Of a stretch of 45,104 bases of DNA, positions 1 through 45,104 are shown one piece after another. This DNA comes from a virus. Made by a program: the position numbers and the translations under genes. The notes below the pieces were generated by a model. The model was not told the DNA's origin, ran no database searches, and was given only the letters and a program-made list of their open reading frames with translations. Each line of letters opens with the position of its first letter. Position 1 is the first letter of the stretch. Where the stretch lies: positions 1 through 45,104 of IMG/VR virus record IMGVR_UViG_3300028591_000032. One strand, written 5' to 3'.

Positions 1-127
1 AACAGGCTGTAGTCCCCGGTATCCCGCCCGATCTGCCTGTACTGGTGCAGGATTCCCATGGCAGTGTCCAGGTCGCTACCTCCCCACGCTTCGGAGGAGG
101 CAAGTCTTTCCGCCTCCCCGTCGAAGT
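1..127. repeat. Terminal overlap, copy 1 (identical to 44978-45104)
   Basis: Direct comparison of the first 127 nt and the last 127 nt of the window. Confidence 0.95.
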
Positions 128-3100
128 CTGCCTGCAGCCGCCCCAGGGCCTCGTTCATGCTGCTGCGCTCGCTGATCGGGTCGTAAGTGAACTTTTCCGG
201 TTGGGTCTCGGCCATCTGCCGCTCCACCTCGTTGTACAGCCCGCCCAGCTCAAAGGCGTTGCTGCGGACCCGGGAGACCTTCCGATTCTCGCGGGGGTTC
301 GTGGTGCGGTAGTCCCCGTCCCCACGGCGCTCAGCCGGACCCGGCACGGTGGGCCGGAAGACCAGCTTCTCGCTTGGGGCGGTTTCGATGGAGGCGCTGC
401 CACCCGCTTCGTCCACCATGCGCTGCGCGGTCTCCATATCCCCCGCTTCCACGGCAGCCAAATATGCCTCGTCATCGATCTCCCGGCTGGCCTTGCCGCT
501 CTCCCGGCTGGCCTTGGCAGTCTCTGACACATTGACTGGCTGATTGTTCTGCACCCGTCGCTCCGTCTCCCGGATGGTCTCGCTCATGCGCTGCCGGAGC
601 TTCCGGTCTCCCAGCCGCTCCCTCAGCATGTCGAAGCCCGCTCGGTAATCCGCCAGCATCTCGTCCTCGATCTCAACCGGGTCCGTGACGCCCAGCTTGG
701 CATAGGCGTTTACGTAGCGGTTCAGGATGGCGTCATAGTTCCGGGATATCTCCGGGTCCGCACGGAGATCGCGGATGATCTCCGCCCGCAGCTCGGGACT
801 CTGCTTCAGTTCCCGGTGCAGCTCTTCGTGCGCGGCGAGCTGCTGCCAGCTGAGTCGGTCATGGTTCACCTGGACCCACATGGTCTTGCCGTCACCGGAA
901 ACGAAGGCCCTTGCCCGGTTCCCGCCCTGGAGGCCGAGCTGGCCCACCATGGGGACGAACCTCACACCCCTGTCTGCGTAGTCCTGTACGGTCTGCCGCA
1001 GCTCGCTGTCCCACAGGTCCTCCGGGAAGTATGCGGCGAGCTTCTCCTCAGTGCCGTTGTCCAGTCCTGCCTCCCTGGCAGAGAATGCGGTCAGCTCTCC
1101 CCGAAAATGTCGGACCTGATCTGTGATTTCAGCCGCTCGATGAGACTGGGATCTGGTTTCCCGGAGGCCCCGGAAGTTCTGGAGGAATCTACCCAGACCA
1201 GCTCTCCGTCCTGCGTCTCCACCAGCGCCCTGCCGCCCTGCTTTCGTTCCGCCGTCTGCTGCAGCGGATTCTCCCGCTGCGGCGTCCGCTCCGCGCCGGG
1301 CAGCTTCAGCTTCTTCTCGTCCATTGCCCCTTACCTCCCCTTCTTCGGATGCAGTCAGAGTATCCCCGGTCTGCTCTGCTGTCAAGCCCGTCTCTAGCAG
1401 ATTCTGCCCCGCCGGAGCGGTACGTTCTTCCGCCTCGCCGGAGGCTTCCGTCTCTTCCGTTCCGCGTATCTGCCCGGCTTCGACGGTCCTCTGCTGCACG
1501 GCGTACTGCCGCACGGCGTCCATGACGGCCTGCCGCCCGGCGGGGTCGTTGCGCACATCGCCCTCTAGTACGCCCTCGCTGCGCAGCAGCTCGATAGCTT
1601 CGGGGCTCTCGATGATGCGCCGTGCATCGTACTGGGTCACCCGCTCGCCGTTCTCGATCTTGGAGAGAGCGTTGGCCAGGTTGACATCCCGCGCCAGCGC
1701 CTGTGCCCTGCTCCCCAGGGAAGCTGCGCCGTACCGCACATAGGGCGATGCGTACTGCACCGCGGCGCTGGCGGCGCCCATGACGCCGCCGGAGAGAGCG
1801 CCGCCCAGGAAGTCCGTCCCCAGCTCTTTGACCCGCTGTGTGAGCATGTTGCTGACGGCCTCCTTGCGGGACATGCCCCCGGCCTCCAGCTCCGCGACGC
1901 CCCGCTTCCACTCGCTCTTGTCCTGTCCGGAAATCAGGTCGTACAGGGCGTCCGCGCCCCAGTTCAGCAGATCGCTGGCAGCTTCCTCGCTGCCCTCGGC
2001 CAGCATGTTCTTGGCGACATACCGGATAACGCCGTCCGCCAGCATATCCGGGTCCAGCAGGGCCTCCAGGCTGACGTTTTCCGTGAGGATCTCCGCCAGG
2101 CCTGCAACGATGCCCAGGGTGAAGGCCCTGGTGCTGTCCATGCCCTGGTCCCGCAGGCTGGTGACCGTGTCCGCCGCCGCCCCGGTGCCCATGATGAGCA
2201 GGGAGGGCTGCGCCAGCTTCCCCAGGGTCTGCGCCAGCTTACCCCCGGAGGCCTCCCACATGCCGCCCGCGAAGCCGCCGGTGATGGCGGACTGAAAAAT
2301 GAAGTCCAGCATGGATATACCCGTCTGGTACAGGAAGGATCCGGATTCCCCCCACTTTTCCGCTTGCTTCGATGCCTCGTCCCGGATGGCGGATGGAATA
2401 TAGCTGAACTGGTTCCAGGCGGCGTTCTGGTCGATATTCCCCGTGGCAGCCATATCGATGGCTTGTCCGAAGAGTGACACGGCCTTCGCTGGGGATGTGA
2501 TGACGCTGTACAGGGAGGTTGCCCAGGGATGCTTCGCCGTCTCTGCGCGCCACCAGTCCTCGTCAGCCTGCCGCTGCTTCCGGTTGAGTCTGGGGGTGAT
2601 CTCCCCGAGGAAAGCGTTGGCCGCGTCCTTGCCCTTGGTGGAATACAGGTAGTTGTATACTCCCCGCTCCTCCTCCGTCATGCGGGTGAGATAGCTCTTG
2701 TCCATGGCGGGGCCGTTGTGGCTGTTCCACTCCGTGAGGATATCGTTGGCCGCGTTCCCCCGGGCGTCGGTGTAGCTGCCGTTGATGATGGCGTAGTCCA
2801 CGTCCCGGTACCCGGAGTCGATGTAGTTTCCCAGCTTGCCGTACCGGGAGCCGCCCTGCATCATGGCCGCGTCCGCACGGCTCTTCTCCCCCCAGTCCGT
2901 CTGCTGCATGAGGGGGAGATACTTGGCCATGCTGTCACGGTATTCAAGATCCTCCAGACGGCTCTGCGCCTGGCTCGCCTGCCCCCGAAGCTGTTCCGCC
3001 CGGGCTCGCATCTCCCCGGCCTGCCGGATGGGGTCCCACACGTTCTCCCGCTGGTACTGACCCACCTGCTCCGGAGTCATGCGGCTGTAGTCCGGATGCA

Positions 3101-3788
3101 GCGCCTCGTATCCCTCCGCGTCCTGTATGGCCCTGTCGGCTCGGATATCCAGCACCTTGGCCTCCGCCAGCAGCTTCTCTCCCTCGTCCGGATTCGCCCG
3201 TGTATACTGATCCAGCGCCGTCTGCACCTCCCGGTACCGGCGCAGGGTGTCCTCATACGCCGCGGCGTTCTGCTGGGCGTGCCCCGCCAGGGTGTTGTAT
3301 TGCTGTGCCGCCATGCGGTACTTGTGTGCAGCCAGCTGATACTGCCCCAGCAGGGCGGTATACTCTTCCCTGTACCGGGAGGGATCGGGGGCCGCCTGAA
3401 TACGGGAGACCATGTCGTTCATGGCCCGTTCCAGGGCCTCGTACCGCTCCTTGGCTCCCTGGGCGTAGGCGCTGAGATTGCCGTTCACCGCCATGGGCTT
3501 CTGGCTCAGCTCCTGCAGCCTTCGGCTGTAGCCCAGCAGGTCATGTTCCGCCTGCGCTGGGTCCGCGGCGACCCGGGCGCCCGTGTCCCGGGTGTCCATG
3601 GCCGCCATGCGGCTCTCCCGGGCCTGCTGCGCGGTGCGGGGCGTCTGCTGAGGCTGCGCGGTCTGCTGCTTCTGCTGCGCCGCCCTGAGCCGTGCCAGCC
3701 CGGTCAGCCCGGAGGTCTCCTCCTCCGTGTCCTTCGTCCCGGACGTGGCCGCCTGAAGCCGCGCCAGCCCTGTCAGTCTCTCTGCCAT
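1..3788 (-). CDS. Giant virion/ejection-type polyvalent-like protein, N-terminal 1,262 codons. It continues across the circular junction into 44977..41236, for 2,509 aa in total.
   Basis: Manual translation from ATG 3788 (SD AAGGAGG at 3794-3800) shows no stop down to base 1. The frame joins MGILHQYRQIG of track ORF 41236..45036 once the 127-bp overlap is removed. It has a Q-rich, coiled-coil-like N-terminus, several Gly/Ala-rich hydrophobic segments (about 1630-2500) and an HEELH motif at 816-830 within AFVSGDGKTMWVQVNHDRLSWQQLAAHEELH. Confidence 0.8.
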   Translation of the reverse strand, partial: MAERLTGLARLQAATSGTKDTEEETSGLTGLARLRAAQQKQQTAQPQQTPRTAQQARESRMAAMDTRDTGARVAADPAQAEHDLLGYSRRLQELSQKPMAVNGNLSAYAQGAKERYEALERAMNDMVSRIQAAPDPSRYREEYTALLGQYQLAAHKYRMAAQQYNTLAGHAQQNAAAYEDTLRRYREVQTALDQYTRANPDEGEKLLAEAKVLDIRADRAIQDAEGYEALHPDYSRMTPEQVGQYQRENVWDPIRQAGEMRARAEQLRGQASQAQSRLEDLEYRDSMAKYLPLMQQTDWGEKSRADAAMMQGGSRYGKLGNYIDSGYRDVDYAIINGSYTDARGNAANDILTEWNSHNGPAMDKSYLTRMTEEERGVYNYLYSTKGKDAANAFLGEITPRLNRKQRQADEDWWRAETAKHPWATSLYSVITSPAKAVSLFGQAIDMAATGNIDQNAAWNQFSYIPSAIRDEASKQAEKWGESGSFLYQTGISMLDFIFQSAITGGFAGGMWEASGGKLAQTLGKLAQPSLLIMGTGAAADTVTSLRDQGMDSTRAFTLGIVAGLAEILTENVSLEALLDPDMLADGVIRYVAKNMLAEGSEEAASDLLNWGADALYDLISGQDKSEWKRGVAELEAGGMSRKEAVSNMLTQRVKELGTDFLGGALSGGVMGAASAAVQYASPYVRYGAASLGSRAQALARDVNLANALSKIENGERVTQYDARRIIESPEAIELLRSEGVLEGDVRNDPAGRQAVMDAVRQYAVQQRTVEAGQIRGTEETEASGEAEERTAPAGQNLLETGLTAEQTGDTLTASEEGEVRGNGREEAEAARRGADAAAGESAAADGGTKAGRQGAGGDAGRRAGLGRFLQNFRGLRETRSQSHRAAEITDQVRHFRGELTAFSAREAGLDNGTEEKLAAYFPEDLWDSELRQTVQDYADRGVRFVPMVGQLGLQGGNRARAFVSGDGKTMWVQVNHDRLSWQQLAAHEELHRELKQSPELRAEIIRDLRADPEISRNYDAILNRYVNAYAKLGVTDPVEIEDEMLADYRAGFDMLRERLGDRKLRQRMSETIRETERRVQNNQPVNVSETAKASRESGKASREIDDEAYLAAVEAGDMETAQRMVDEAGGSASIETAPSEKLVFRPTVPGPAERRGDGDYRTTNPRENRKVSRVRSNAFELGGLYNEVERQMAETQPEKFTYDPISERSSMNEALGRLQADFDGEAERLASSEAWGGSDLDTAMGILHQYRQIGRDTGDYSL
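1091..1324 (-). CDS. 77-aa ORF nested in the +1 frame of the giant ORF (overprinted gene, or the ancestral frame of that segment)
   Basis: ATG 1324 lies 9 nt after GGGGAGG. A hand count gives about 80% G/C at third positions here, against about 47% for the giant frame over the same bases. The peptide composition is ordinary (MDEKKLKLPG...LIERLKSQIRSDIFGES). Confidence 0.4.
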   Translation of the reverse strand: MDEKKLKLPGAERTPQRENPLQQTAERKQGGRALVETQDGELVWVDSSRTSGASGKPDPSLIERLKSQIRSDIFGES

Positions 3789-3798
3789 GCTTCCCTCC

Positions 3799-5721
3799 TT
3801 AGTCCAGGCCGAACTCGTCCATGAGCATATCCACCTCGTATTCGTGGATGAGGCCCTGCTTCACCGCGCTGTTCAGCAGGGTGAGACCCTTGCTGGGATC
3901 CTTCCGCAGCACCTGCCGGATGTTTCTGTAGCCCTCGCTCATGGTCCTGCCGCCCTGGTGCTGTACCCCGGAGATATCGTTGCCCCGGAAGCTGTAGCTC
4001 CCCGTGCCGCTGTCACCCGCTCCCGGCTCCAGCTGCCGGGACGCCAGGATCTCCTCCGGGGTGACCCCCAGCCCCGCCAGCTGCGTGATGGCCACATCCC
4101 GGTCCTCCGCCCCCTGTACCGCGTCGTTCACCAGATTCAGGTAGTCCGGCCTGGTCCGCAGTTCGCCCAGGTCGCCGCTGCCGCTCCCGGCGCCGGAGCC
4201 GGATCCGGACCCGCTGCCGGACCCGCTGCCGGACCCGCCCACGGCTCTGGCGTATACGGTCTGCTCCTGGGGACTGATGCCCAGGGCGGTGAGGCCGCCG
4301 TAGTCTCCGTACTGCGCCCCCAGCTTCGCTAGAGCCAGCCGCCGCTCGTATTCATCCTGGCTCTCTCCGTACCGCCTGTCGTATTCGCTCCATCCCCGGC
4401 TGTAGTCCGTCTCGTCCTGGTATCTCCGGCGGTCATACTCCGTCTGCTCCGCCTGACGTTGACGCTCATAGGCGTCAAGCGCCCGGGAATATTCCGTCTC
4501 ATTTGCGTACACTCCCCGATTATAGGCGTCACGGTCCGCCTGGAGCGCCCGCTCGTAGGCCTCCTGTTCCTCCGTGCGCCGGTCCCCCGTGGTGTCCCGC
4601 CACTGCTGGTAGCTCAGCTCCCGGTCCCGGTTATACTGCCCCAGGACGCCGTTGTTCCAGCGTTCATAGTCCCGGTCCTCCAGCCCCCTGTAGGCGTCCG
4701 CTAGCCCCAGCTGGCGCTGATACTCCGCCAGGTATCGCTCGTATGCCGCCTGGTACAGCTCCGGGATCTTGTCCGTGAGCTGCTGTCCGTAGTAGTTCCG
4801 CTGCTGCGCCGCCGCCGTTGCCCCGTAGGAGTTCGCCAGACCGCCCGTGCGGGCCGATACGCGCCCAAGGGTATCCTCCATGGCCCGTTGCCCCTCCCGG
4901 GTGTATTGGGCCTTGTAGGCCTGCCATACGGGGTCGGATTCCAGGTCGTACTCGAACTTTCCCCGCCCTGCCCGGTCCAGGGCGTCCCGCATCCTCTGAT
5001 CCCACTCCCCGCTCCGGTACTGCGGGGCTTCTCCGTAGCTCCAGAGCGCCGCCTGATAGGGCGTGGCGGGCTGCATGGCGCCCTGCCGGTATGCCCCGGT
5101 GGGGCCGTCGAACTCGCTGCCGTTCAGCCCCTCCTGATAGTACGCAGCGGCGGAGGCGGGAGCTGTGCTCCCGGATACCCCGCCCATGGCTCCGAAGTTC
5201 CAGGGCGTGACGGGATTCGTCCCGCCGAGTACCGCGCCGGAAGCGCCGGTGTCTCCGGTGGCTCCGGTGGCTTCGGAGGTCCCGGCGAGAACGCCCCAGC
5301 TCGTGGGGGTATTCGTCACCGAGCCGGTCTTCCGCACCTCCACGGGCGTGGAGATGTCCCTGGCCGGGTCCGCAGCGACGCCGCGCTGCAGGGTAGGCAC
5401 GTCCGCCATGCGTGTGGTGTCCCCTACGGCCCCCACGGCCTGGTCCCGGAGATCATCCCATTCGTCCAGGCTGAGCCAGCCGTGGCCCTTCTGGATGTCC
5501 AGCCCGCCCCCGGGCTGGCTCGCCGCCGTGACCGCAGCCTGATAGGGCGTGGCAGGCAGTGTCCCATTGTCCGGCAGGTCCGCGAACTGTTCCCCGAAGC
5601 GGTTTGCCCCGGAGAGGTTGGGTCGGCCCGGATTCAGGGGTGCGTCCTTCTGCTGCCCGGTGATCTTCTGCCCGCCGATCACGTCGTCTTCCAGATATAC
5701 GTCCTTCCTGGGCTTAGCCAT
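3799..5721 (-). CDS. 640-aa virion-associated protein of unknown function (Tyr/Arg/Glu-rich repeats and a Gly-Ser linker); candidate internal/ejection protein
   Basis: ATG 5721 follows AAGGAGG. The ORF is long with high G/C at third positions. It contains repeated Y-x-R/E motifs (EYDRRRYQDETDYSRGWSEYDRRYGESQDEYERR) and a (GS)n tract. Confidence 0.75.
   Translation of the reverse strand: MAKPRKDVYLEDDVIGGQKITGQQKDAPLNPGRPNLSGANRFGEQFADLPDNGTLPATPYQAAVTAASQPGGGLDIQKGHGWLSLDEWDDLRDQAVGAVGDTTRMADVPTLQRGVAADPARDISTPVEVRKTGSVTNTPTSWGVLAGTSEATGATGDTGASGAVLGGTNPVTPWNFGAMGGVSGSTAPASAAAYYQEGLNGSEFDGPTGAYRQGAMQPATPYQAALWSYGEAPQYRSGEWDQRMRDALDRAGRGKFEYDLESDPVWQAYKAQYTREGQRAMEDTLGRVSARTGGLANSYGATAAAQQRNYYGQQLTDKIPELYQAAYERYLAEYQRQLGLADAYRGLEDRDYERWNNGVLGQYNRDRELSYQQWRDTTGDRRTEEQEAYERALQADRDAYNRGVYANETEYSRALDAYERQRQAEQTEYDRRRYQDETDYSRGWSEYDRRYGESQDEYERRLALAKLGAQYGDYGGLTALGISPQEQTVYARAVGGSGSGSGSGSGSGSGAGSGSGDLGELRTRPDYLNLVNDAVQGAEDRDVAITQLAGLGVTPEEILASRQLEPGAGDSGTGSYSFRGNDISGVQHQGGRTMSEGYRNIRQVLRKDPSKGLTLLNSAVKQGLIHEYEVDMLMDEFGLD
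4174..4239. repeat. GCY/GGA-type microsatellite encoding the (Gly-Ser)n linker of the 640-aa protein
   Basis: The sequence gccgctgccgctcccggcgccggagccggatccggacccgctgccggacccgctgccggacccgcc encodes GGSGSGSGSGSGSGAGSGSG. Confidence 0.8.
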
Positions 5722-5869
5722 GCTCTTCCTCCTTCTCCAAAGCTCTGAGGCGCGTCTCCAGCCGGGTCAGCTCCCGCTCCAGCTCCGCCTGTATCTCGTT
5801 CACATGGTCCTGGATGGCCTGGGGCTTGTCCCGGACGCCCCGGAGATCCAGCTTCCTCCGAAATCTCAC
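5714..5869 (-). CDS. Small 51-aa coiled-coil protein (below the track cutoff)
   Basis: A GTG start overlaps the TGA of the upstream gene (GTGA), and the 3-prime end overlaps ATG 5721. The translation RFRRKLDLRGVRDKPQAIQDHVNEIQAELERELTRLETRLRALEKEEEHG looks like a real coiled coil. Confidence 0.4.
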   Translation of the reverse strand: MRFRRKLDLRGVRDKPQAIQDHVNEIQAELERELTRLETRLRALEKEEEHG

Positions 5870-8259
5870 GGCATGATCCCTCCGTATACGCTCCCCACGG
5901 TGTACTCCCTGGTGATGCTCATGATAGCGCCGTCCCCCGCGCCCTGGATGCGCAGCAGCACCTTGTCCTGTCTGTGGGGCGCGATGGGGATGATCACCGT
6001 ACCCTCCACCTCGCCGCCGGAGCCGGTCTGGATGGTCCGCTCCGTGCGCTCCTGACCGCCGTATATGGTGCTGATCCGGAGATATTGATCCCCCGCCCCG
6101 ATGGTGAGCGGCCCCAGCTTGTACCGGATGATGAGCCGCAGCAGCCGCTTCCGCTCCGGGGGAAGATCCTCGTCCAGCACTGCCAGGGTGGCGGACCACG
6201 GGACGGCGGAGAGGTAGCCGGAGGAGTTGCCCTCGTCCACGGCCTTGCCGTTCTCCCGACGGCTGGTATACCTGCCGTCCCAGTACAGCACCTCCGGCGC
6301 TTCGCCGCTCACGGCGGCCCTGACCTCCGGGTATGTCGCCATGGAGCGCATCCACAGACCGCGCACCGTGTCATAGCTCAGCGTCTCCCACGCCTCGTCC
6401 TGGGTGTTCCGGGTGTTCAGGTAGTACCGCTTTCCGTCCGTCCAGCCAACGCCGCCGGAGTACGGGATGGTCCCCAGCTTCCCGCCGATGCGCCGGGGCT
6501 CAGCTCCGGCGTAGACGTATACGTCCTCCGGCCCCAGGTAGTACAGCCGCTCCGCGATGTTGATAATGGTCCGGTGTGCCCCCGCCTGTACTCCGGGGAT
6601 AGTGGCCGTCCCCGTGGCGTAGGTGTCCGGTGTGTAGCCCGTGACCTCCACCAGCTTGTCCTCCTTCCAGCAGAGGACGCGCCCGCCGTAGGGGCAGATG
6701 GCGGTGAAATCTCCCTCAGTGCCGTCCGCCGTCTGCCAGGAATCCGTGCTGAGCCCGGCGAACAGGGCGAACACCGTAGGCTCCCCCAGGGCGGAGGCGT
6801 AGATGATTCGGCTGTAGAAGGTACTGAGCGTCCTGGTCTCCGGGTCCCACGCCCGGTTTTGCACCCGGTTCGCCACGCCCCAGAGCCGGTTTTCCGATGC
6901 GCAAATGTAGTCCATGGGGGGGACAATGCGCTCCAGCGTTGCGGTTTCTGTGGAATACTCCTCCGCCGTCAGCTCCGTGGCGTCGGAGCTGGGGAGGTCA
7001 GCTTCCAGAGTCTGCACCGTGGCCCGGATCTCCGGCTGCCAGACGTATACATGGGTCAGGTCCTCCGGGAGAAGGTACAGCACCTGCCCTGCGTACAGAG
7101 CTCCGTCTGTCTCCGTGCGCCATGTCTGCGCCCCGTAGGTGATGTCCAGCCGCGTGCCGTCCGGGATGTCGTTCTCCAGCTCTGCTGTCGCCATAGGCAC
7201 GGTGAAGCTCCCCTCCGCCACCGTGACCGTCTCCTCGTCCACGCTGAGCACCCGAAGATCCTCCCCGTCCCCGAAGCCGTAGAGCGTGCCGGTGATGTTG
7301 AGGATATCCCCCTGGTGGAAGATCTCGCTCAGCACGGGATTCCCGGATGCATTGACCTGGTATACGGTATAGGTGCAGTCGAAGGCCGCGGTGGTTGTGT
7401 CCGCTTCCTCGTTGTGGACGTACTCCCTGGAACGGATGCCCGTGATCACCGCGTATTGCCCCAGGGCGTTGTATCGCGCGGGGTTGGGATTCTGTACCGT
7501 CTCGTGATACGCCTGAGGGTCCTCCGGGTCCCGCACCCGTCTCGCAAAGCCAGGCACATACATCCCGTCCTGCCCGGGGATGAAGATGACGTCCATGGTG
7601 CTGTCGCCGATCCTGTAGTCCACCAGCAGATCGGAGTACATGCCGCCCTTGCTGGCCAGCGCAGCCAGCGCAGTGAGATCCCATGCGCCGTCATGCCAGC
7701 ATGCCTCCACGGCAGCCCTGTCCGTGCCGTAGGTGTACAGGAACAGGTTGACGTCTCCCGCTGCGCCCGTCACGCCCGTGTAGCTCTGGGAATTCCGTAC
7801 CATGGAAGAGGAGAAGGTCCCGATGCTATGATCCGTGAGAGCCACGCCGTGAAGCTCCGCCTCCGCGTTCATAGGCTCCAGCGTCATGCTGCGCAGATCC
7901 ACCACGGCCTTGTCCGGCCAGATGACGAGCTTGGTGTTCACCACGGCCCATTGCTTGGCCCCCGGCGTGAGCGTGCCGATGGCCCGGGGCAGCCCGCTGC
8001 CCTCCTGTAGGTACAGCGTACCCGCGCCGCTTACAGAGAACAGCCGGTCCCCGTCCCGGAACATGTCAGTGCTGCCGGCGTATTCGATGTCCTGAAATTC
8101 CCCCTGTCTGGGGGCGAGATACGGCCACCGCCTGGTGCTGACGTTTTCGCATTCCGTCAGTTCGCCCTCCCGCACGTCATCGGAGCGATTCAGGCCGCCG
8201 AACTGAAGGAGCTGGCGCTGTACCGCGCCGCGCCCGCTGATCCTCGGAAACAGACTCAT
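5866..8259 (-). CDS. 797-aa large structural protein; candidate tail nozzle/hub (beta-rich, propeller-like repeats)
   Basis: ATG 8259 overlaps the xhlA-like stop (ATGA). The N-terminus reads LLQFGGLNRSDDVREGELTECENV. Y/W-rich strand motifs recur (LYYLG, YWDGRY, RYYLN). The size is comparable to podovirus nozzle proteins. The function is an inference. Confidence 0.7.
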   Translation of the reverse strand: MSLFPRISGRGAVQRQLLQFGGLNRSDDVREGELTECENVSTRRWPYLAPRQGEFQDIEYAGSTDMFRDGDRLFSVSGAGTLYLQEGSGLPRAIGTLTPGAKQWAVVNTKLVIWPDKAVVDLRSMTLEPMNAEAELHGVALTDHSIGTFSSSMVRNSQSYTGVTGAAGDVNLFLYTYGTDRAAVEACWHDGAWDLTALAALASKGGMYSDLLVDYRIGDSTMDVIFIPGQDGMYVPGFARRVRDPEDPQAYHETVQNPNPARYNALGQYAVITGIRSREYVHNEEADTTTAAFDCTYTVYQVNASGNPVLSEIFHQGDILNITGTLYGFGDGEDLRVLSVDEETVTVAEGSFTVPMATAELENDIPDGTRLDITYGAQTWRTETDGALYAGQVLYLLPEDLTHVYVWQPEIRATVQTLEADLPSSDATELTAEEYSTETATLERIVPPMDYICASENRLWGVANRVQNRAWDPETRTLSTFYSRIIYASALGEPTVFALFAGLSTDSWQTADGTEGDFTAICPYGGRVLCWKEDKLVEVTGYTPDTYATGTATIPGVQAGAHRTIINIAERLYYLGPEDVYVYAGAEPRRIGGKLGTIPYSGGVGWTDGKRYYLNTRNTQDEAWETLSYDTVRGLWMRSMATYPEVRAAVSGEAPEVLYWDGRYTSRRENGKAVDEGNSSGYLSAVPWSATLAVLDEDLPPERKRLLRLIIRYKLGPLTIGAGDQYLRISTIYGGQERTERTIQTGSGGEVEGTVIIPIAPHRQDKVLLRIQGAGDGAIMSITREYTVGSVYGGIMP

Positions 8260-8525
8260 GATATCCCCATCCTTACCGCGATGTAGGCCAGCAGCGCCGT
8301 CACCACCCAGGTGAGCACGCTCTGGCTGACGCTGTCCCATCGTTTCCCCGGCCTGAGCCGCATTTCCTGGAGGGTTTTAGTCATTTCCTCCAGTTTGCCG
8401 TCGATCTGGTCCAGGCGCTGCTTCAGCAGGGCCAGGGTGATGTCCCCGTTGTGCAGCCGCTCCTCGGCGGCGTCCATGCGCCGCCGAAGGTCCTCGAATT
8501 CCACGCGGGTCACCGGTTCATTCAT
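8256..8525 (-). CDS. xhlA: XhlA-like lysis accessory protein (coiled coil plus a C-terminal transmembrane helix)
   Basis: 89 aa. An N-terminal coiled coil (EDLRRRMDAAEERL...IDGKLEEMTKTLQEM) is followed by the hydrophobic helix VLTWVVTALLAYIAV. It sits next to the holin and endolysin. Confidence 0.55.
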   Translation of the reverse strand: MNEPVTRVEFEDLRRRMDAAEERLHNGDITLALLKQRLDQIDGKLEEMTKTLQEMRLRPGKRWDSVSQSVLTWVVTALLAYIAVRMGIS

Positions 8526-8727
8526 CGGCAGCTCCCTCGCCCTCTGCCTCCGGCAGACCCGTGACGATGCTGGTGAGGATACTCAGGATCCCCGCCAGCA
8601 AGGAGGCGGACGCCACTGCGAGCCAGTTGACCTCCTCCATTACCGCCGTGGTGCCGATGACGGCGATGGCCGTCTGTGCCACCGTCCGCAGTGCCCGGAT
8701 CCCCGCCGCCTTCAGAAATTTCTTCAT
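8518..8727 (-). CDS. Holin (two transmembrane segments)
   Basis: ATG 8727 follows AAGGAGAGGGAG. The sequence is MKKFLKAAGIRALRTVAQTAIAVIGT...WLAVASASLLAGILSILTSIVTGLPE. It lies immediately downstream of the endolysin. Confidence 0.7.
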   Translation of the reverse strand: MKKFLKAAGIRALRTVAQTAIAVIGTTAVMEEVNWLAVASASLLAGILSILTSIVTGLPEAEGEGAADE

Positions 8728-9365
8728 GCTCCCTCTCCTTTCAGTCTGTGCAGCACCGCCGCCAGCTCCGCCCGCGTCACGGGCCTGTCCGGCTGCCATG
8801 TGCCGTCCTCGTAGCCTGTCATGAGGCCCTTGTCCATGGCCCAGCGGATGTGTTCTTCAGCCCAGTGGCCTTCATAGTCCGTCTTAGGCTCGTCTTTGTA
8901 CATTGGTCTCACCACCCCCACGATATTGCGATATAGTCGCGTTTTGTACGCCACGCAGCCCCCGTTGTCCTGGCTGCCCACGTTGTAGCTGTACGATGTG
9001 TTCCCCTCGATGGTGCTCACCCATCCGTCTCCCGTGCCGAGAATGAGACCGCAGTGTTCAGGATCCTTTCCGCCGTAGAAGTTCAGCAGTACGATATCCC
9101 CCGGCCGCGCCTCGCTCACCGGCACCGTCTGTCCCTGGGCCCGGTACCAGCTGTACAGCACGCCGCAGGAGGCGGTCTTTCTTCCGCCGCAGAACAGCTC
9201 AGAAAGCCCCGCCGCCCGGAAGCACCACCAGAGGAAGATGACGCACCAGGGTACTCCGTCCCATCCGTATGCCGCGCCGTACTTCGTCCTGTTGGAGCCG
9301 GGCGGGGATTCGGTGCCGCCCACCTCCGCCCGTGCCGTTTCGATCAGTCTGTCGATGCACTTCAT
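8724..9365 (-). CDS. Endolysin: N-terminal CHAP amidase/peptidase plus a C-terminal SLH cell-wall-binding domain
   Basis: CHAP Cys context GVPWCVIFLWWCF and His context EHCGLIL. SLH-like HWAEEHIRWAMDKGLMTGYEDGTWQPDRPVTRAELAAVLHRL. Confidence 0.8.
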   Translation of the reverse strand: MKCIDRLIETARAEVGGTESPPGSNRTKYGAAYGWDGVPWCVIFLWWCFRAAGLSELFCGGRKTASCGVLYSWYRAQGQTVPVSEARPGDIVLLNFYGGKDPEHCGLILGTGDGWVSTIEGNTSYSYNVGSQDNGGCVAYKTRLYRNIVGVVRPMYKDEPKTDYEGHWAEEHIRWAMDKGLMTGYEDGTWQPDRPVTRAELAAVLHRLKGEGA

Positions 9366-9930: not shown

Positions 9931-11160
9931 TTATGTCGGTATGGCCTGGATGTACGCGCTTCGGGCGCTCCAGCCGCTCGCCGCCTGGTACGCCGCCACA
10001 GAGGCGGAGGGAACATATATGGCACAGTCAGCGGGAACGTTGCTGAGTGCACCCGACCCAAGTGTCGGCGGCATTGAATTCAGGCAGTAGAGTTCCGTCA
10101 GGCCGCTGCAGCCGTAGAACGCATTGCTTCCGATGCTCGTCACGCTCGACGGGATCGTCACGCCCGTCAGACTCGTGCAGCCGAAGAATGCGCTGCCCCC
10201 GATGCTCGTCACGCCCTCCGGGATCGTCACGCTCGTCAGACTCGTGCAGCCGTAGAACGCATAGGCCCCAATGCTCGTCACGCTCGACGGGATATTAAGT
10301 GCAGTCACCGTCGTTCCGTTGAGGTATAATGTGTGCACCAAAGTAGTTGGGTTGCTATAGGCATCGAAAAAGCTGATCCCGCACCAGGCGGCTATATCTG
10401 TGATATGCACGCCCGTAAGCCCCGTGCAGCCGTAGAACGCATTGCTTCCGATGCTCGTCACGCCCTCCGGGATCGTCACGCTCGTCAGACTCGTGCAGCC
10501 GGAGAACGCGCCGCCCCCGATGCTCGTCACGCTCTCCGGGATCGTCACGCTCGTCAGACTCGTGCAGCTGGCGAACGCGCTGCCCCCGATGCTCGTCACG
10601 CCCTCCAGGATCGTCACGCCCGTCAGACTCGTGCAGCCGAAGAATGCGCTGCCCCCGATGCTCGTCACGCCCTCCGGGATCGTCACGCTCGTCAGACTCG
10701 TGCAGCCGTAGAACGAGTATTGTACATCCAGCCGCATCCCATCACCGAAGCGCACGCCTGTCAGGGTAGGATACGTCCCGCTCTTGCCGCCCTGACCGCA
10801 CAGGCCGTAGTTGGTGGTGCTGCTTCCGGAGGTGATCGCCGCGCCGGGGCTCCAGGTCTCCCCGTCCGCGCAGGCGATGCGTACAATGTAATCCCCCGCC
10901 TCGGCGTAGGTGTGACTCAGGCTCGCCGCCAGATCGCTGGGGCTTTCTGTGGCGCTGCCGTCCCCCCAGTCTACCGTCACGGCGTTGGCCGCGCTCTGCG
11001 TCAGATACAGGGGCTGGGTGAGGTTGGAGGTCAGGTTGAAGTCCAGTTGACTGTCCGTACTCCCGGGCCACACCTCCACCCCGTTGTACCGCACACGCTG
11101 GTTGGGCGATCCGTTGTAGTTGACGTGCTGGACGGGTGTCCCGTTGTATTTCAGTGCCAT
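9931..11160 (-). CDS. BspA-type leucine-rich-repeat (LRR_5) receptor-binding/fibre protein, 409 aa
   Basis: Tandem 23-aa units of the form CTSLTSVTIPEGVTSIGGSAFxG. The C-terminus IYVPSASVAAYQAASGWSARSAYIQAIPT is shared with the second LRR gene. Confidence 0.75.
   Translation of the reverse strand: MALKYNGTPVQHVNYNGSPNQRVRYNGVEVWPGSTDSQLDFNLTSNLTQPLYLTQSAANAVTVDWGDGSATESPSDLAASLSHTYAEAGDYIVRIACADGETWSPGAAITSGSSTTNYGLCGQGGKSGTYPTLTGVRFGDGMRLDVQYSFYGCTSLTSVTIPEGVTSIGGSAFFGCTSLTGVTILEGVTSIGGSAFASCTSLTSVTIPESVTSIGGGAFSGCTSLTSVTIPEGVTSIGSNAFYGCTGLTGVHITDIAAWCGISFFDAYSNPTTLVHTLYLNGTTVTALNIPSSVTSIGAYAFYGCTSLTSVTIPEGVTSIGGSAFFGCTSLTGVTIPSSVTSIGSNAFYGCSGLTELYCLNSMPPTLGSGALSNVPADCAIYVPSASVAAYQAASGWSARSAYIQAIPT
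10085..10712. repeat. Two blocks of about 69-bp tandem repeats encoding the LRR units (about 10085-10300 and about 10400-10712)
   Basis: The unit gatgctcgtcacgccctccgggatcgtcacgctcgtcagactcgtgcagcc... recurs with a 69-bp period. Confidence 0.85.
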
Positions 11161-11169
11161 GGCGTCACC

Positions 11170-11679: not shown

Positions 11680-11864
11680 GCTTCGCCTCCGAATTCCCGC
11701 CAGGTCGCCCCGGCCTCGTCGTAGAAATAGACCTTCCCGCTGTCCATTTCGATGAGACAGCTCCCGTTCAGGATGCCCTGGGTGGGCTTGGTATCCGTGG
11801 AGAGGCAGGCCCCCTCCACATACTTCCCCCCGCCCGTGTACCGGATCTTGTTGTAGCTCAGCAT
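11676..11864 (-). CDS. 62-aa hypothetical protein in the fibre module
   Basis: The ATGA-type overlap with the downstream gene suggests coupling. The sequence is MLSYNKIRYTGGGKYVEGACL... Confidence 0.5.
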   Translation of the reverse strand: MLSYNKIRYTGGGKYVEGACLSTDTKPTQGILNGSCLIEMDSGKVYFYDEAGATWREFGGEA

Positions 11865-11874
11865 AGTTTCCTCC

Positions 11875-12673: not shown

Positions 12674-12678
12674 GGCCG

Positions 12679-13263: not shown

Positions 13264-13276
13264 GTGTATTCCTCCT

Positions 13277-14729: not shown

Positions 14730-14794
14730 GTCCTTCCCTCCAAGCAGGGGAGGGCCGAAGCCCTCCCCACGGGTGAATCTCAGGTCGTGCCGCC

Positions 14795-22601: not shown

Positions 22602-22602
22602 A

Positions 22603-40632: not shown

Positions 40633-40674
40633 ATAAAAAAGAGGGCCTATCCGGAAGTCACCGGATAGGCCCTC
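40633..40674 (-). terminator. Strong rho-independent terminator (14-bp perfect stem plus a T6 tract)
   Basis: The minus strand reads GAGGGCCTATCCGG-tgactt-CCGGATAGGCCCTC-TTTTTTAT, directly after the sigma-like gene. Confidence 0.8.
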
Positions 40675-41235: not shown

Positions 41236-44200
41236 TCATTTTCTCGTGGGGAGCATCATCTGTGTCAGTGGGTTCTGACGCTTCGGCTGCACCGCGGGAA
41301 GCTGGAGCGTCTGGCTCCCGGTATTCCGTGCGGATCCGCTCCCGACGCGCCAGGGCGCTTCGTCGATGGTGCTCTCGGCATAACCGTTGTCCCGATACAG
41401 ATAGTCCTTCTGCGCGTTGGTGAGCGGCAGGCTGTTGATGGTGTCCAACACCTTGGCCTTCTTGCTGCCGCTGATGCTCTTGCCGCTTGCGTCCTTGTCC
41501 GCTTCCAAACTCCCGGTCATTCCCTTGTACTGGAGGTATACGGCTGTCTCGATCCCCGCCTGGGTCGCGGCCTGGTAGGCCTTGTCGTAGGCGGTGTTGC
41601 TGTATTCCGTGCCACGGCTTTCCGCGAACGCTTTGGCCGCGAGGAAGTTCGCGTAGTTCCGGATCCAGTTGGCGGTCTCGGCTTTGTCCGCGTCGCTGAG
41701 TCCGGCGTACCAGCCGCTGGTCAGCATCTGCCGCATCAGGCCGGTGATCTGCCCGCCCCGGAATGCCTGCCACTGCGTCCGCTCGTCCGGGGTCAGGGTA
41801 TAGGTCTCGCCGCTCAGCTTCGCCTCATACGGCGGATTCCTCTGGGGCAGTACCGTTCCGCTCCCCGTGGCCTCATACAGCCTGAGCAGCTCATCCCGCA
41901 CCTCGTCCGTGTCGTATACGCTGATGCTCCCGGGATTCAGCAGAGCGTTCATGGCGTTCAGGGTGGGGCTCTCGTACCGTCTCGGCTCGCCCAGGGGCGT
42001 GAGCTTCGGGGCCAGGAGGCTCCGGACTCCGGGGACGGCGTTTGCCGTCCGCGCCGCCGCCTGGTCCAGGAGGTTGCGGGAGCGATACTGGTCCCTGTAT
42101 ACCATGTCTGACGCCTGCGCAAGCTGCCGCACCGGCGCGGGGACAAAGCCGCTCAGCGATGAAGAGGCGATCTCGAAGGGGACCTGCATATACAGGGGCA
42201 GATCGCTCTCCACGTCGTGGTATTGGATCGTGTTGTATATGTTGCTCAGGGTCTGCATGGCGGAGGTGTTCTCCAACGCCAGCCAAATGCCCTGAAGGGA
42301 GTCCTCTACGGTCTTCCCGGCCACTCTCCCATCGGTAAAGAATTTGCCAAGGTCCAGCCCCTTCAGTTCCTTGTCATTTGTGACCAGTGTTGCGATAGTC
42401 ATGAGGCTGTCCAGAGGCTCCAGGAAATTGATGTCGGCCAGCACGTCCCCCTTCTGCGGCTCCGGACTCTTCCCGGAGAGGAGCCGCCCCATGGCCGTCA
42501 CGTTGAGCTGTGTCCCGGTGATGCCCTGGCTCTGGAGCAGAGCGGCGGCGTTGGCGTCCTTTTCTGCTTCTTTCCGCCGCAGCAGGCCAAGCTTCGCCAG
42601 CAGCGCGAACAGCATGATCAGTCCGCTCCCCGTGGTGGCCCGCCCGAATGCCAGAGCGGCATCCCGCTGGGCCTTGAGCGTGCTTTCGCCGCGCCCTGCC
42701 CGGTTCACCGTCTGTGCCAGATGATACAGCCCCTTGACATAACCGACAGGGCTGAACTCGATGGTCCTGTGGATCAGCGCCCCGGGCACCTGGGTATACT
42801 TCACAACCAGGTCGCCCAGGCCGAAATCGTGTACAGGCCTGCCCCTGACAGTCTTGCCGGATGTATTCCCGATTCCGGCCGTGTTCAGGACATCCCGCAG
42901 TCCGCCCAGCATCGTGCCGACGAGCGTGTCATCCTGGAAGGAGCGGTACAGTGCCTCCTGGGCGGCGAACTCCGCCGCCTCCTCCTCCGTCATCTGCCCT
43001 CGCTCCACGAATCTTGCCAGGCTCTCCAAGGTCTCGGCGTAGACGCTGCCCTTGTGGAATTCGTCCGTGGTGTTCAGCTCGTAGCCCAGGATCTGTTCCG
43101 CCCGGGAGAGGATGCGCCCGACGGCGCCGCTGTTGGCCATGCTCCAGGTGCGCCGCGCCCCGGTGCCGTACTTACTCAGATTCCGCTCCCCCGGAGCCGC
43201 GTCCAAAGCGATCTCAAGAAGGTTGCGCCCCGCGCCCTGAATGGCGCCGCGCCGCTTCGCCGCGCTGGCCCAGCTCTTCTGCAGCCCTACGCCGCGTTGA
43301 CCTGTAAACCGGCTCATGATGATGTCCGGCAAAAGACCGAGGTTGTTCGCCGCGGTCTCCACCAGATCGAACACCTGGTTGCTGGTAAGGTTGCGCATGG
43401 CCGTGCGGGCGTTCAGCAGGTGGGAGATCACCTGATAGGTGCTGAGCTTCTCCCCGGCGGTCCTGGGGACGTAGTCCGCAGCGATGAGGCCGAGCTGTAC
43501 CGTGGCCAGAGCCCGGAGGTATTCCGTGTCCGTGGTGCCGCCCAGGACCTTTTCCGCCAGGCGGTCCAGCTTGGTCTTCCGCACGGCAGCCTGTTCCCGG
43601 ATGAGCTGCCGGAGCCCCTCCAGGTCATCCTCCGCGATGGCGTCCAGTGTGTCCGCAAACCTGGCCATAGTCTCCGTGATGCGCCGCTGCTCCGCCCTGC
43701 TGAGCTTGCCAAGCCCCAGGGCGTCCACCACGGCGTCCTCCACGTTAGTGCTGGTGAGACCGCCCAGGTGAATGAGATCCATGAGTCTGTCTCGCTGCGC
43801 GGGCTTGATCCTCTCGCCGGTCTCCCGGAACATCTTTTCCAGCTCACGGTCCGCCCGCTCCTGGATGCGCTCCATGTAATGCCCGGCGATGTGGTTTGCC
43901 GCGATGGCGGCGTCCGCTGCCGGAATGTGCAGCTCGTTGATGAGATACCCGGCGATCCGGTTTGCCGCCTCGGCCTTGGTGAGGCGGGATTCCCGCAGCA
44001 GCTCTGTGAGCCTGATGTCCAGTTCTCTCGCCGCCTCGTCCTCCAGCCTCTCCGTGCGCCCCTCGATGTTGCTCTCCCGAATCAGGTTCCCGATGTGCCG
44101 CTGCACGGCGTCCAGCAGCACCTGGTCTTCTGTACCGACGCGCCGGATGAATTCGTCGGCAATGCGCCGTGCGGCATTCTGCCCGACCCCTGCCGCCGCC

Positions 44201-45104
44201 AGGTCCAGGATATCCTTTTTTGTGATCCCAAGGGCCTCCGCGGACTCCAGGATCGCACGGTACATGGTCCTGTCCAGGTCCTCCCCGTTGTAGCTGATGG
44301 TGGCGTTCAGGAAACTCTCCAGCGCCTCCAGCTTCTCCGGGTCATCGGCGTACTGCGCCCGCAGCACATCCTTGGCCTCCTGCCAGGCGCGGGCGTAGGC
44401 CTCCCGGTTGTTGAGGTAGTCCGTGATGCGCTCGATGGCCGTCCGGGGAGCCTCCCGATCCGCCTGCTGCAGCGCATGCTCGGAAGCGTAATTCACCAGA
44501 TCATCCAGGATGGTCTGCATAGTGGTCTGTGCCCTGGTGGCCTTCGGTTCAATCCGTGCGGAGATCCTCTGAGCCAGACGGTCGCCTGCCTCCGTGATCC
44601 AGTTCTCCACGGGGATCCCGTGGTCCCGCTGCTCACGGAAGATCTGGTAGATCTCCCGGATGACATGCTCGGCGTCCGTGGCCCGCTGCGCGTCTCTCGA
44701 CCCGGCAGGAGCGGACCCCGGGACATCCTCGCCCCTCGCCAGGCCTACGGCCTCCCTGGCGGCGTCTTCGGAAAATTCGTCAGCCGCACCGATGATTCCC
44801 TCCGTGATCCTCCGCACACGCTCCTGCTCAGCGGGCGTCAGCCTGCCTGCGGTCTCACGCATCGTCTCGGATGCTTTCCGCGCTGCCTCGGTCGCGGTGC
44901 GGCTGTACTTTGCGAAGGCTTGCACGAGTTGCCCGCCCTTTGTGCCCTTGCGCTGGATGATGTGGGACCATTCGTGGAACAGGCTGTAGTCCCCGGTATC
45001 CCGCCCGATCTGCCTGTACTGGTGCAGGATTCCCATGGCAGTGTCCAGGTCGCTACCTCCCCACGCTTCGGAGGAGGCAAGTCTTTCCGCCTCCCCGTCG
45101 AAGT
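41236..45104 (-). CDS. Giant polyvalent-like protein, C-terminal part (continues from 3788..1; bases 44978-45104 duplicate 1-127)
   Basis: Track ORF 41236..45036 has no stop upstream of its first Met and is in frame with the ORF that leaves the window at base 1. A second HExxH (HEWSH) lies at 44962-44976. The body is long and helical, with the hydrophobic segment GSGLIMLFALLAKLGLL. Confidence 0.8.
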   Translation of the reverse strand, partial: FDGEAERLASSEAWGGSDLDTAMGILHQYRQIGRDTGDYSLFHEWSHIIQRKGTKGGQLVQAFAKYSRTATEAARKASETMRETAGRLTPAEQERVRRITEGIIGAADEFSEDAAREAVGLARGEDVPGSAPAGSRDAQRATDAEHVIREIYQIFREQRDHGIPVENWITEAGDRLAQRISARIEPKATRAQTTMQTILDDLVNYASEHALQQADREAPRTAIERITDYLNNREAYARAWQEAKDVLRAQYADDPEKLEALESFLNATISYNGEDLDRTMYRAILESAEALGITKKDILDLAAAGVGQNAARRIADEFIRRVGTEDQVLLDAVQRHIGNLIRESNIEGRTERLEDEAARELDIRLTELLRESRLTKAEAANRIAGYLINELHIPAADAAIAANHIAGHYMERIQERADRELEKMFRETGERIKPAQRDRLMDLIHLGGLTSTNVEDAVVDALGLGKLSRAEQRRITETMARFADTLDAIAEDDLEGLRQLIREQAAVRKTKLDRLAEKVLGGTTDTEYLRALATVQLGLIAADYVPRTAGEKLSTYQVISHLLNARTAMRNLTSNQVFDLVETAANNLGLLPDIIMSRFTGQRGVGLQKSWASAAKRRGAIQGAGRNLLEIALDAAPGERNLSKYGTGARRTWSMANSGAVGRILSRAEQILGYELNTTDEFHKGSVYAETLESLARFVERGQMTEEEAAEFAAQEALYRSFQDDTLVGTMLGGLRDVLNTAGIGNTSGKTVRGRPVHDFGLGDLVVKYTQVPGALIHRTIEFSPVGYVKGLYHLAQTVNRAGRGESTLKAQRDAALAFGRATTGSGLIMLFALLAKLGLLRRKEAEKDANAAALLQSQGITGTQLNVTAMGRLLSGKSPEPQKGDVLADINFLEPLDSLMTIATLVTNDKELKGLDLGKFFTDGRVAGKTVEDSLQGIWLALENTSAMQTLSNIYNTIQYHDVESDLPLYMQVPFEIASSSLSGFVPAPVRQLAQASDMVYRDQYRSRNLLDQAAARTANAVPGVRSLLAPKLTPLGEPRRYESPTLNAMNALLNPGSISVYDTDEVRDELLRLYEATGSGTVLPQRNPPYEAKLSGETYTLTPDERTQWQAFRGGQITGLMRQMLTSGWYAGLSDADKAETANWIRNYANFLAAKAFAESRGTEYSNTAYDKAYQAATQAGIETAVYLQYKGMTGSLEADKDASGKSISGSKKAKVLDTINSLPLTNAQKDYLYRDNGYAESTIDEAPWRVGSGSARNTGSQTLQLPAVQPKRQNPLTQMMLPTRK
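44978..45104. repeat. Terminal overlap, copy 2 (identical to 1-127)
   Basis: Direct comparison of the two window ends. Confidence 0.95.

Follow-up and report, generated by a model that had tools for sequence, protein, structure and literature searches.

A giant gene of a temperate gut podophage as a probable ejection protein of the gp16 class built on a polyvalent scaffold

Introduction

Polyvalent proteins are known from phages and conjugative elements. Their hallmark domains include ART-PolyVal, PBECR and LPD domains, and for the phage type delivery together with the DNA has been predicted (Iyer, Burroughs, Anand, de Souza, Aravind 2017, PMC5512222). Here we describe a giant open reading frame (ORF) in the IMG/VR virus record IMGVR_UViG_3300028591_000032, positions 1 to 45,104, referred to below as the window (45,104 nucleotides, nt). 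The source is a temperate short-tailed phage (podophage) of gut Oscillospirales.

Three further groups of described proteins are close enough to be compared with this gene. In podophages, the cluster of ejection genes ends with the gp16-like gene, which is also the largest among them. Its product is helical and refolds once it is out of the portal, and C-terminal membrane helices are found in all gp16-like homologs (PMC8954989). Phage phi24B encodes gp47, a polyvalent protein of 2,807-2,811 amino acids (aa) with a metallopeptidase. This protein was found by virion proteomics, is invisible in cryo-EM and has been proposed to be an encapsidated ejection protein (bioRxiv 10.64898/2026.04.10.717836); for N4 gp50, Iyer et al. 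described a zincin MPTase region (PMC5512222). Finally, the prophages phi1 and phi4 of Clostridium clostridioforme LM41 each have an ORF of ~8 kb at the 3′ end, which takes up ~20% of the genome and shows similarity to LPD3-bearing podophage proteins (PMC11318856).

We propose that the giant ORF encodes a packaged ejection protein, the largest internal protein of the capsid, which belongs to the gp16 class and is built on a polyvalent scaffold. We put the probability of this reading at about 68%.

Results and discussion

The giant ORF is one intact gene

Bases 1-127 of the window are exactly identical to bases 44978-45104. These identical 127-nt ends indicate that the assembly is circular, with a unit of 44,977 bp (61.8% G+C). 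On the circle, a minus-strand ORF starts with the ATG at 3788, passes through base 1 to 44977 and ends with the stop codon at 41236. It comprises 7,530 nt and 2,509 aa. A first-pass annotation, made from the letters of the window and a list of their ORFs, had described such a single ORF across the junction, filling about one sixth of the genome, with a Shine-Dalgarno sequence AAGGAGG in front and two HExxH motifs, HEELH at nt 816-830 and HEWSH at nt 44962-44976. All of this was borne out: the rotated translation from ATG 3788 to 41236 met no stop, the ORF makes up 16.7% of the genome, the Shine-Dalgarno sequence is present and both motifs lie exactly at those positions.

The window junction falls at aa ~1263, inside a conserved module (module C; all modules are listed in Table 1). 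The alignment of module C runs unbroken over the junction in seven homologs (P0001, P0002, P0004 and P0105-P0108). In the related contigs L003, L004 and L050 the gene is intact and internal to the contig. Therefore, the join and the ORF are real, and the giant ORF is one intact gene. Its codon bias is uniform, and its G+C content at third codon positions (GC3) of 0.83 equals that of other clearly real genes.

Consistent splitting of the homologs had been named in the first-pass annotation as an argument against a single gene. We found a frameshift only in the close relative L002 (near query aa ~1300), which is an 8.5-kb metagenomic contig; the other close relatives are single ORFs. P0001 is an intact ORF of 3,996 aa. 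L050 has one open frame of 3,381 codons, with modules A, B, the short 'leader' motif, C and D all in frame, and the ORF of L049 is interrupted solely by the contig end. P0107 is a compact version of 1,750 aa with the architecture A-C-D-E, and it is preceded by a homolog of the 640-aa gene that precedes the giant gene here.

Module D resembles gp16-position internal virion proteins

Module D is the large helical domain of the C-terminal half. Its AlphaFold2 (AF2) model, built on an alignment of 37 sequences, had a pLDDT of 84.4 and a pTM of 0.80 and was mostly helical, as the first-pass annotation had expected for this half of the protein. The fold had no counterpart in PDB (TM <=0.12). Against BFVD, a database of predicted viral structures, Foldseek gave 46 matches at E<=1e-3. 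The best ones were metagenomic polyvalent proteins (E=2e-29, TMq 0.70). Matches named 'internal virion protein' came from Pelagibacter phage Eyrgjafa (E=4e-14, TMq 0.50) and from the Synechococcus phages S-CBP3 and S-RIP1 (TMq ~0.5).

Profile comparison pointed to the same class. When module D was aligned by hhalign with Syn5 gp45, an 'internal virion protein' in the gp16 position, the probability was 98.5% (E=1.5e-15, 364 columns), with aa 1896-2339 of the giant protein against 931-1320 of gp45. P-SSP7 gp16 gave 97.2% (E=4e-11), and P-SSP7 gp15, used as a control, gave 0.2%. The sole transmembrane-grade helix of the giant protein, aa 2044-2062, falls within the stretch aligned to the gp16-class proteins and is conserved there. 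Scanning the genome collection with the single sequence of module D returned nothing. Judged by profile alignments and predicted structures, module D is a homolog of the C-terminal portion of the internal virion proteins that T7-like cyanophages have in the gp16 position. The position of the gene as last and largest, the helicity of the product and its C-terminal membrane helix all fit the rules for gp16-like proteins.

The giant protein lacks cysteine

The giant protein contains no cysteine, and ~35 would be expected from the rest of the phage proteome (1.39% Cys; Poisson P=7e-16). Cysteine is likewise missing from the product of the neighbouring 640-aa gene. The median cysteine content of 241 giant homologs was 0.07%, and 48 of them are free of cysteine. 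We found the same absence in the gp15/gp16-class reference set: T7 gp15 and gp16, N4 gp50, gp51 and gp52, Syn5 gp44 and gp45, and P-SSP7 gp15 and gp16 together have 0 cysteines in 10,692 residues. The structural neighbours of these reference proteins have 0.3-2% Cys. In phi24B gp47 there are two cysteines in 2,807 residues. The review of ejection proteins does not mention cysteine (PMC8954989). By analogy with the reference proteins, the absence of cysteine may be taken as circumstantial support for an unfolded passage through a channel.

Module B is a zincin-like domain with one conserved HExxH motif

The two motifs lie at aa 987-991 (HEELH) and aa 1264-1268 (HEWSH). The first belongs to module B, in which the HExxH residues, Y1025, E1043 and D1047 were invariant among 17 homologs of 22-40% identity. 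With the module B profile, an exhaustive search returned 1,171 cluster representatives at E<=1e-3, almost all of them giant proteins that carry the module around residue 650-1,300. In 212 instances of module B, the H, E and H of the motif were each conserved in 97.6%, Y in 97.2%, E in 96.7% and D in 96.2%.

The AF2 model of module B reached a pLDDT of 89.9 and a pTM of 0.83. In model numbering it consists of a helix (29-40), strands at 44-50, 52-54, 62-64 and 70-74, and two further helices (82-97 and 138-151). HExxH is in helix 82-97, and E1043, at the position of the third ligand, is in helix 138-151 together with D1047. This layout of a helix, a small sheet and two active-site helices matches the zincin core as described (PMC5512222). 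The top ~40 Foldseek matches in PDB, which were below significance, were nearly all zincins: PprI, ZMPSTE24/Ste24, anthrax lethal factor, BlaR1, the minigluzincins selecase, jannalysin and abylysin, and archaemetzincin. The first of them is a regulator of M. tuberculosis, which we take to be ImmA/IrrE-like. The module B profile gave noise only against PDB sequences and nothing against Syn5 gp45. From residue conservation and the predicted fold, we consider module B a real, divergent module of the gluzincin type that lies outside Pfam MPTase-PolyVal, and probably a functional zincin. The HEELH block had been pointed out in the first-pass annotation as a zincin-like module, and its conservation (>=96% at the key residues), its confident model and the zincin-dominated list of structures agree with that.

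The second motif fared differently. HEWSH corresponds to NEWSH already in a 67%-identical homolog and to EEWTH, QAWAR or RELTE elsewhere. As the motif is not conserved in homologs, it is not an active site. It is a chance motif, despite the expectation of only 0.026 HExxH motifs in a protein of this composition.

The family has a fixed order of modules

A first search of a large protein database revealed 103 homologs, all of 1,626-4,236 aa and mostly on contigs of ~10-50 kb, and a wider collection of 280 proteins was used to map the modules. The family belongs to temperate podophages of gut Oscillospirales and spans ~1.6-4.3 thousand aa. Relatives of module A were found in 39 gut Oscillospirales genomes, among them Oscillospiraceae, Faecousia, Flavonifractor sp. 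An100, Neglectibacter timonensis and Butyricicoccaceae.

The giant protein has at least five separately conserved modules, and public profile collections hardly cover them. The whole protein matched nothing in Pfam at E<=1. The individual modules had no Pfam match at E<=10, including MPTase-PolyVal and all LPD families, and none in NCBIfam at E<=1. The only PHROG match was phrog_22978, a 3,513-position family of unknown function, which covered aa 274-701 (E=1e-59). Sequence searches with the whole protein gave nothing in PDB and one weak match among annotated phages.

Module A was present in 92 of the 103 first-round homologs and in 199 of the 280 collected proteins, always at the N-terminus. 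Module C is common to P0001, P0002, P0004, P0070 and P0105-P0108. Module E occurred in 173 of the 280 proteins and lay <=10 residues from the C-terminus in 69/172. In 113 long cluster representatives, which were sampled via module B only, the order was always A, B, optional D and E, with zero permutations. Between B and D/E, the homologs carry cargo such as ART-PolyVal, PBECR3, PBECR5, LPD3, LPD23, LPD38, MuF_C, SNF2 / Strawberry-notch helicases, GNAT and other domains. As the scaffold of these relatives carries the hallmark domains of polyvalent proteins, the relatives are polyvalent proteins. The first-pass annotation had likened the HEELH block to the zincin module of such proteins. The family of the giant protein does consist of polyvalent proteins, but the giant protein has no Pfam match to MPTase-PolyVal or LPD.

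Several compositional features proposed in the first-pass annotation were also examined, with a 19-residue Kyte-Doolittle scan for hydrophobicity. The N-terminal region is rich in Q, A and R (Q 11%), in agreement with the proposed Q-rich region. The region of the proposed Gly/Ala-rich hydrophobic segments (aa ~430-720) is indeed Gly/Ala-rich, but its values of 1.2-1.36 are below transmembrane grade. The linker described as acidic has a net charge of -9, but also 12% Arg.

Two other assignments were considered and dropped. Module A is not a MuF domain: hhalign against SPP1 gp7 gave 0.25%, and there was no match to Pfam Phage_Mu_F. Against PDB, the module A profile produced noise only. For module E, some relatives are named 'EF-hand domain-containing' in BFVD, and the DKDASGKSISGS loop, judged by eye, is off the canonical EF-hand pattern. 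A Gly-rich segment of module A (FLYQTG...AITGGFAGG; aa ~485-512, window ~2253-2336, minus strand) can be placed beside aa 196-228 of Syn5 gp45. The hhalign probability of this pair is 6% over 28 columns, which is below significance, and the segments have comparable N-terminal positions in the two proteins.

The giant gene is a swapped cassette, apparently without its usual cargo

Gene order is conserved in the sibling phage L003. At the protein level, its genes of 797 aa and 650 aa are 95.6% and 84.8% identical to their counterparts here, and the genes downstream share 58-96%. In a blastn comparison, the DNA identity to L003 was 93% from window 8529 to 3160, which corresponds to codon ~210 of the giant gene. 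The identity was lost after this codon and returned ~20 nt before the giant stop. The replaced stretch extends from window 3160 through the junction to 41257 (6.9 kb), and its place in L003 is taken by 10629-22784 (~12 kb). The L003 counterpart is a protein of 4,227 aa with a helicase and LPD38 as cargo, and only its module A could be aligned (46%). This near-total swap indicates that the giant gene is a hypervariable locus of this phage lineage.

The 'leader' motif, a short and highly conserved stretch between modules B and C, was found in 20 of the 280 collected proteins, with three tandem copies in P0233. In homologs it is normally followed by '...AAKKAGY..YHGT', which we took to be the start of a cargo domain. 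P0108, which has a Pfam ART-PolyVal domain, has ~395 residues between the motif and module C. In the giant protein only ~10 residues separate them, so this copy looks like the chassis minus that cargo. Judging from this spacing, the giant protein appears to have lost its cargo. The first-pass annotation had called it a multi-domain effector/ejection protein. The ejection part is supported by the homology of module D, but no effector domain could be identified in the giant protein.

Proposed mode of action and alternative explanations

If the giant gene encodes a packaged ejection protein, a few copies of its product would be enclosed in the capsid. At infection, the cysteine-free chain would pass unfolded through the portal and the tail channel, either together with the DNA or before it. 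Module D would then refold at or in the cytoplasmic membrane and help to form a conduit for the DNA, as proposed for gp16. The zincin would most likely cut the polyprotein itself or a partner and free its parts, and less likely attack a target in the host envelope or defence. We hold the self-processing role only tentatively, at slightly under even odds. As the usual cargo behind the 'leader' motif seems to be gone, the giant protein may be mainly a scaffold, accompanied by two modules without an assigned function (aa 1140-1690).

Several observations weigh against a packaged gp16-class protein with a zincin. The annotation of the cyanophage proteins that anchor module D reads either 'internal virion protein' or gp16 'assigned by synteny and size', and thus the functional anchor is itself partly inferential. 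Module D was not similar to T7 gp16 (0.1%), N4 gp50 (0.19%) or phi24B gp47 (0.09%) in hhalign, and jackhmmer with every module found no matches in phi24B, N4 and T7 proteins. The family of the 640-aa gene, the putative partner, gave nothing against P-SSP7 gp15 and N4 gp51. For module B, the best Foldseek match in PDB had E=0.12, with TM values of 0.2-0.39, which is below significance. No Pfam peptidase model matched it, and MPTase-PolyVal (PF18818) was also absent from 13 scanned homologs. Nor is it specifically related to residues 2130-2448 of the N4 virion RNA polymerase (the MPTase region), for which hhalign gave 0.4%. Moreover, the host is presumably monoderm, judging from the Oscillospirales relatives, so the trans-envelope model of T7 is not directly transferable.

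A protein that is packaged and ejected could still use its zincin as an effector on the host cell wall, the S-layer, or a defence or housekeeping protein. The authors of the phi24B study proposed a peptidoglycan-degrading role for the gp47 metallopeptidase (10.64898/2026.04.10.717836), Iyer et al. named effector roles as possible (PMC5512222), T7 gp16 and K1E gp35 have wall-degrading domains (PMC8954989), and Pfam recognised no other lytic domain in the giant protein. We nevertheless think this rather unlikely. The structures similar to module B are regulatory and processing zincins (ImmA/IrrE-like, Ste24, lethal factor, minigluzincins) and not M23 or M15 wall peptidases, and the zincin always stands right behind module A, no matter which cargo the protein carries, as would suit a role that belongs to the scaffold. 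It is improbable that the protein is never packaged and acts in the cytoplasm against defence or in host takeover, being made after infection or from the prophage. The ART, RNase, helicase and GNAT domains of the relatives are typical of conflict systems, the gene is a hypervariable cassette between near-identical phages, and it is near the lysogeny region on the circular map. However, it has the orientation of the late genes, starts 10 nt from the upstream stop with a Shine-Dalgarno sequence that overlaps this stop, and is followed by a terminator only past its own end. Its module D has homologs among internal virion proteins, the whole family is poor in cysteine as are known ejected proteins, and delivery with the DNA is what Iyer et al. 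predict for phage-type polyvalent proteins beside virion genes (PMC5512222).

A tape-measure-like or other structural protein of a long tail would account for the great length, the helicity and the Gly/Ala-rich segments. Tape measures sometimes have peptidase domains, and some BFVD matches are labelled 'Myoviridae sp.' or 'Siphoviridae sp.' Morphology is not the basis of such family labels in metagenomic UniProt entries, and the genome has no genes for a tail tube, sheath, tail-assembly chaperone or baseplate, but a P22-type portal and, right after the head genes, a podophage GP4-type fibre and leucine-rich repeat (LRR) fibres. A tail protein is therefore very improbable. Even less probable is an origin of the ORF as an artefact of assembly or as a decaying pseudogene, put together over the contig ends. 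Both window ends have to be joined to obtain the ORF and the relative L002 is frameshifted, but such an origin is at odds with the exact overlap of 127 nt, the conserved module that crosses the junction in seven homologs, the intact contig-internal genes of L003, L004 and L050, the uniform codon bias (GC3 0.83) and the intactness of every catalytic residue of module B. Overall, we prefer a packaged ejection protein of the gp16 class.

Genome context and neighbouring genes

The positions of the modules and of the neighbouring features are given in Table 1.

Table 1. Features of the giant gene and its neighbourhood, in window positions
Feature	Residues	Position	Strand	Basis or remark
Giant ORF, part 1	1 to ~1263	1..3788	-	translation; GC3 0.83
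Giant ORF, part 2	~1263-2509 and stop codon (41236-41238)	41236..44977	-	
Shine-Dalgarno sequence AAGGAGG		3794..3800	-	5 nt 5′ of ATG; overlaps TAA stop of 640-aa gene
N-terminal Q/A/R-rich region (Q 11%)	1-269	2982..3788	-	composition
Module A, family-defining N-terminal module; Gly/Ala-rich, moderately hydrophobic helices	270-700	1689..2981	-	phrog_22978
Low-complexity E/R/G/A-rich linker	701-894	1107..1688	-	composition; few homologs cover it
Module B, gluzincin-like metallohydrolase domain	895-1070	579..1106	-	
Conserved residues of module B	H987/E988/H991; Y1025; E1043; D1047	816-830; 714-716; 660-662; 648-650	-	
Short 'leader' motif (DEAYLAAVEAGDMETAQRMVDEA)	1098-1132	393..497	-	
Module C, first half	1140-1263	1..371	-	
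Module C, second half	1264-1330	44776..44977	-	holds HEWSH 44962-44976
Helical region	1331-1689	43699..44775	-	closest relatives only (11 matches)
Module D, large helical domain	1690-2400	41566..43698	-	
Sole transmembrane-grade helix, inside module D (TTGSGLIMLFALLAKLGLL)	2044-2062	42580..42636	-	Kyte-Doolittle 1.69
Module E, helix-loop-helix with DKDxxGxxI loop, ends PW(H/R)	2401-2475	41341..41565	-	
C-terminal extension, ends LPTRK, and stop codon	2476-2509	41236..41340	-	like endings in P0001, P0048
824-aa gene		5866..8340	-	PHROG 'internal virion protein' (phrog_511) match over aa 464-814; 95.6% identical to L003 homolog
640-aa gene, cysteine-free		3799..5721	-	partner of giant gene by synteny in relatives
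Intrinsic-terminator-like hairpin, 14-bp stem and T-run		40641..40674	-	~560 nt 3′ of giant gene, after one small ORF

On the minus strand, the structural genes begin with the terminase large subunit, the P22-type portal, scaffold-like and major capsid genes, and a fibre of the podophage GP4 gp80 type. After the fibre come two BspA-type LRR proteins, an endolysin with CHAP and S-layer-homology (SLH) domains, the 824-aa gene, the 640-aa gene and the giant gene. The first-pass annotation had noted no tail tube or tape-measure context, and we also found no tail tube, sheath, tail-assembly chaperone, baseplate or tape measure among the ORFs of the genome.

The giant gene starts 10 nt past the stop of the 640-aa gene, in the orientation of the late structural genes, and is the final gene of the late structural operon. 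The overlap of its Shine-Dalgarno sequence with the stop of the 640-aa gene suggests translational coupling. The terminator-like hairpin behind it is probably the end of the late operon, and an integrase-like gene is located beyond. A trio of genes of ~600-800 aa, ~500-650 aa and giant size closes the structural module in L003 and L004, as the genes of 824, 640 and 2,509 aa do here, and the order of mid-sized genes followed by the giant gene was also seen in L001. The product of the 640-aa gene is a candidate for a second ejection protein. PDB sequence searches with the 824-aa and 640-aa proteins gave GS-linker artefacts only.

Some other features of the genome were noticed. A Pro/Gly-rich ORF at 13235-14188 on the plus strand, which was picked by simple ORF calling and overlaps 13277-14167 on the minus strand, is almost certainly spurious. 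The minus-strand ORFs at 13.3-14.8 kb, between the capsid gene and the Gp80-like fibre, may be adaptor or nozzle genes. The two BspA-type LRR_5 proteins (9931-11160 and 11875-12558, both minus strand) have a near-identical C-terminal peptide, ...GWSARSAYIQAIPT, and are presumably receptor-binding fibres. The tandem repeats at 10095-10715 are 69-bp DNA repeats that correspond to LRR units. The endolysin (8724-9365, minus strand) combines CHAP/NlpC_P60 with the SLH domain, and its gene lies inside the structural module, between the fibre and internal-protein genes. The SLH domain points to SLH-anchored wall polymers in the host. A 314-aa protein encoded shortly behind the giant gene (38519-39463, minus strand; phrog_16490; 58% in L003) has a hydrophobic, very Gly-rich N-terminal part. 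A 370-aa ORF of the early or accessory region (33594-34706, minus strand) contains a pentapeptide-repeat stretch of the NTGNW type, which is encoded by 17.7 copies of a 15-bp tandem repeat (33940-34204). In the related phage L004 (GCA_965295965.1), the fibre region at 3501-5773 has a reverse transcriptase (RVT_1) between two DUF6273 genes, and this locus looks like a diversity-generating retroelement.

Significance

The general class of such proteins and the idea of their ejection are already known. What is new is a link between the polyvalent scaffold and gp16-position proteins that is based on homology and goes beyond gene position alone. New as well are a clade of zincins with more than 1,000 cluster representatives that is missing from Pfam and NCBIfam and has a fixed position, a strict order of modules, a copy that is apparently without cargo, and the cysteine-free signature.

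It is conceivable, although we would not bet on it, that the giant polyvalent proteins of gut podophages in Firmicutes are in general expanded ejection proteins of the gp16 class. They would consist of the chassis A, a 'release' zincin, a gp16-like membrane or conduit module D and the end-cap E, with an exchangeable bay for effectors, so that a DNA-delivery machine would double as an effector injector. The absence of cysteine would then be a general signature, readable from sequence only, of proteins that pass a channel unfolded.

Gut prophages commonly have giant ORFs that take up 15-30% of their genomes and are usually left 'hypothetical', and the anatomy of one of them can now be tested. 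If the chassis-plus-cargo organization is true, these proteins would be natural devices for injecting proteins into abundant gut Firmicutes that are difficult to access by genetics, and also a rich source of new anti-defence effectors. If the cysteine-free signature is general, it would offer an inexpensive way to predict ejected proteins in metagenomes and uncultured phages.

Comparison with known systems

Like described polyvalent proteins, the giant protein is a multi-module polypeptide encoded beside virion genes, with a zincin-type HExxH module as the hub. It differs from them in that it has no Pfam polyvalent match, neither Pfam nor NCBIfam covers its modules A, B, D and E, it has no MuF or ArdC-N anchor, and its cargo is apparently missing. 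The LM41 prophages phi1 and phi4 are similar as gut Clostridia prophages with one huge ORF at the 3′ end, a likeness drawn from their description only.

Similar to gp47 of the Stx phage phi24B, the giant protein stands at the end of the genome of a temperate podovirus, is of polyvalent type with a metallopeptidase-like module and is poor in cysteine. The two have no module in common in jackhmmer and hhalign searches, which also counts against our preferred explanation; gp47 has LPD1, LPD5 and LPD38, and its host is Gram-negative. N4 gp50 is a cysteine-free podovirus protein of 3,500 aa that is packaged and ejected. Its neighbour genes encode 885, 150 and 644 aa, compared with 824 and 640 aa here. 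Unlike N4 gp50, the giant protein has no RNA polymerase domain; there is no sequence relation between the two, and their zincins are not specifically related.

Compared with the gp16 class, the giant protein is twice as long, has the extra N-terminal modules A and B plus the linker, and has no transglycosylase domain. No similarity to T7 gp16 was detected and no gp14- or gp15-like homolog was recognised. In addition, the presumed monoderm host has no outer membrane to cross. On the side of likeness, module D has significant profile and fold similarity to Syn5 gp45 and P-SSP7 gp16, the gene is the last and largest after the structural genes, and the product is helical and cysteine-free with a conserved C-terminal hydrophobic helix. 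The order of the trio also resembles gp53-gp52-gp51-gp50 of N4 and gp14-gp15-gp16 in T7, Syn5 and P-SSP7.

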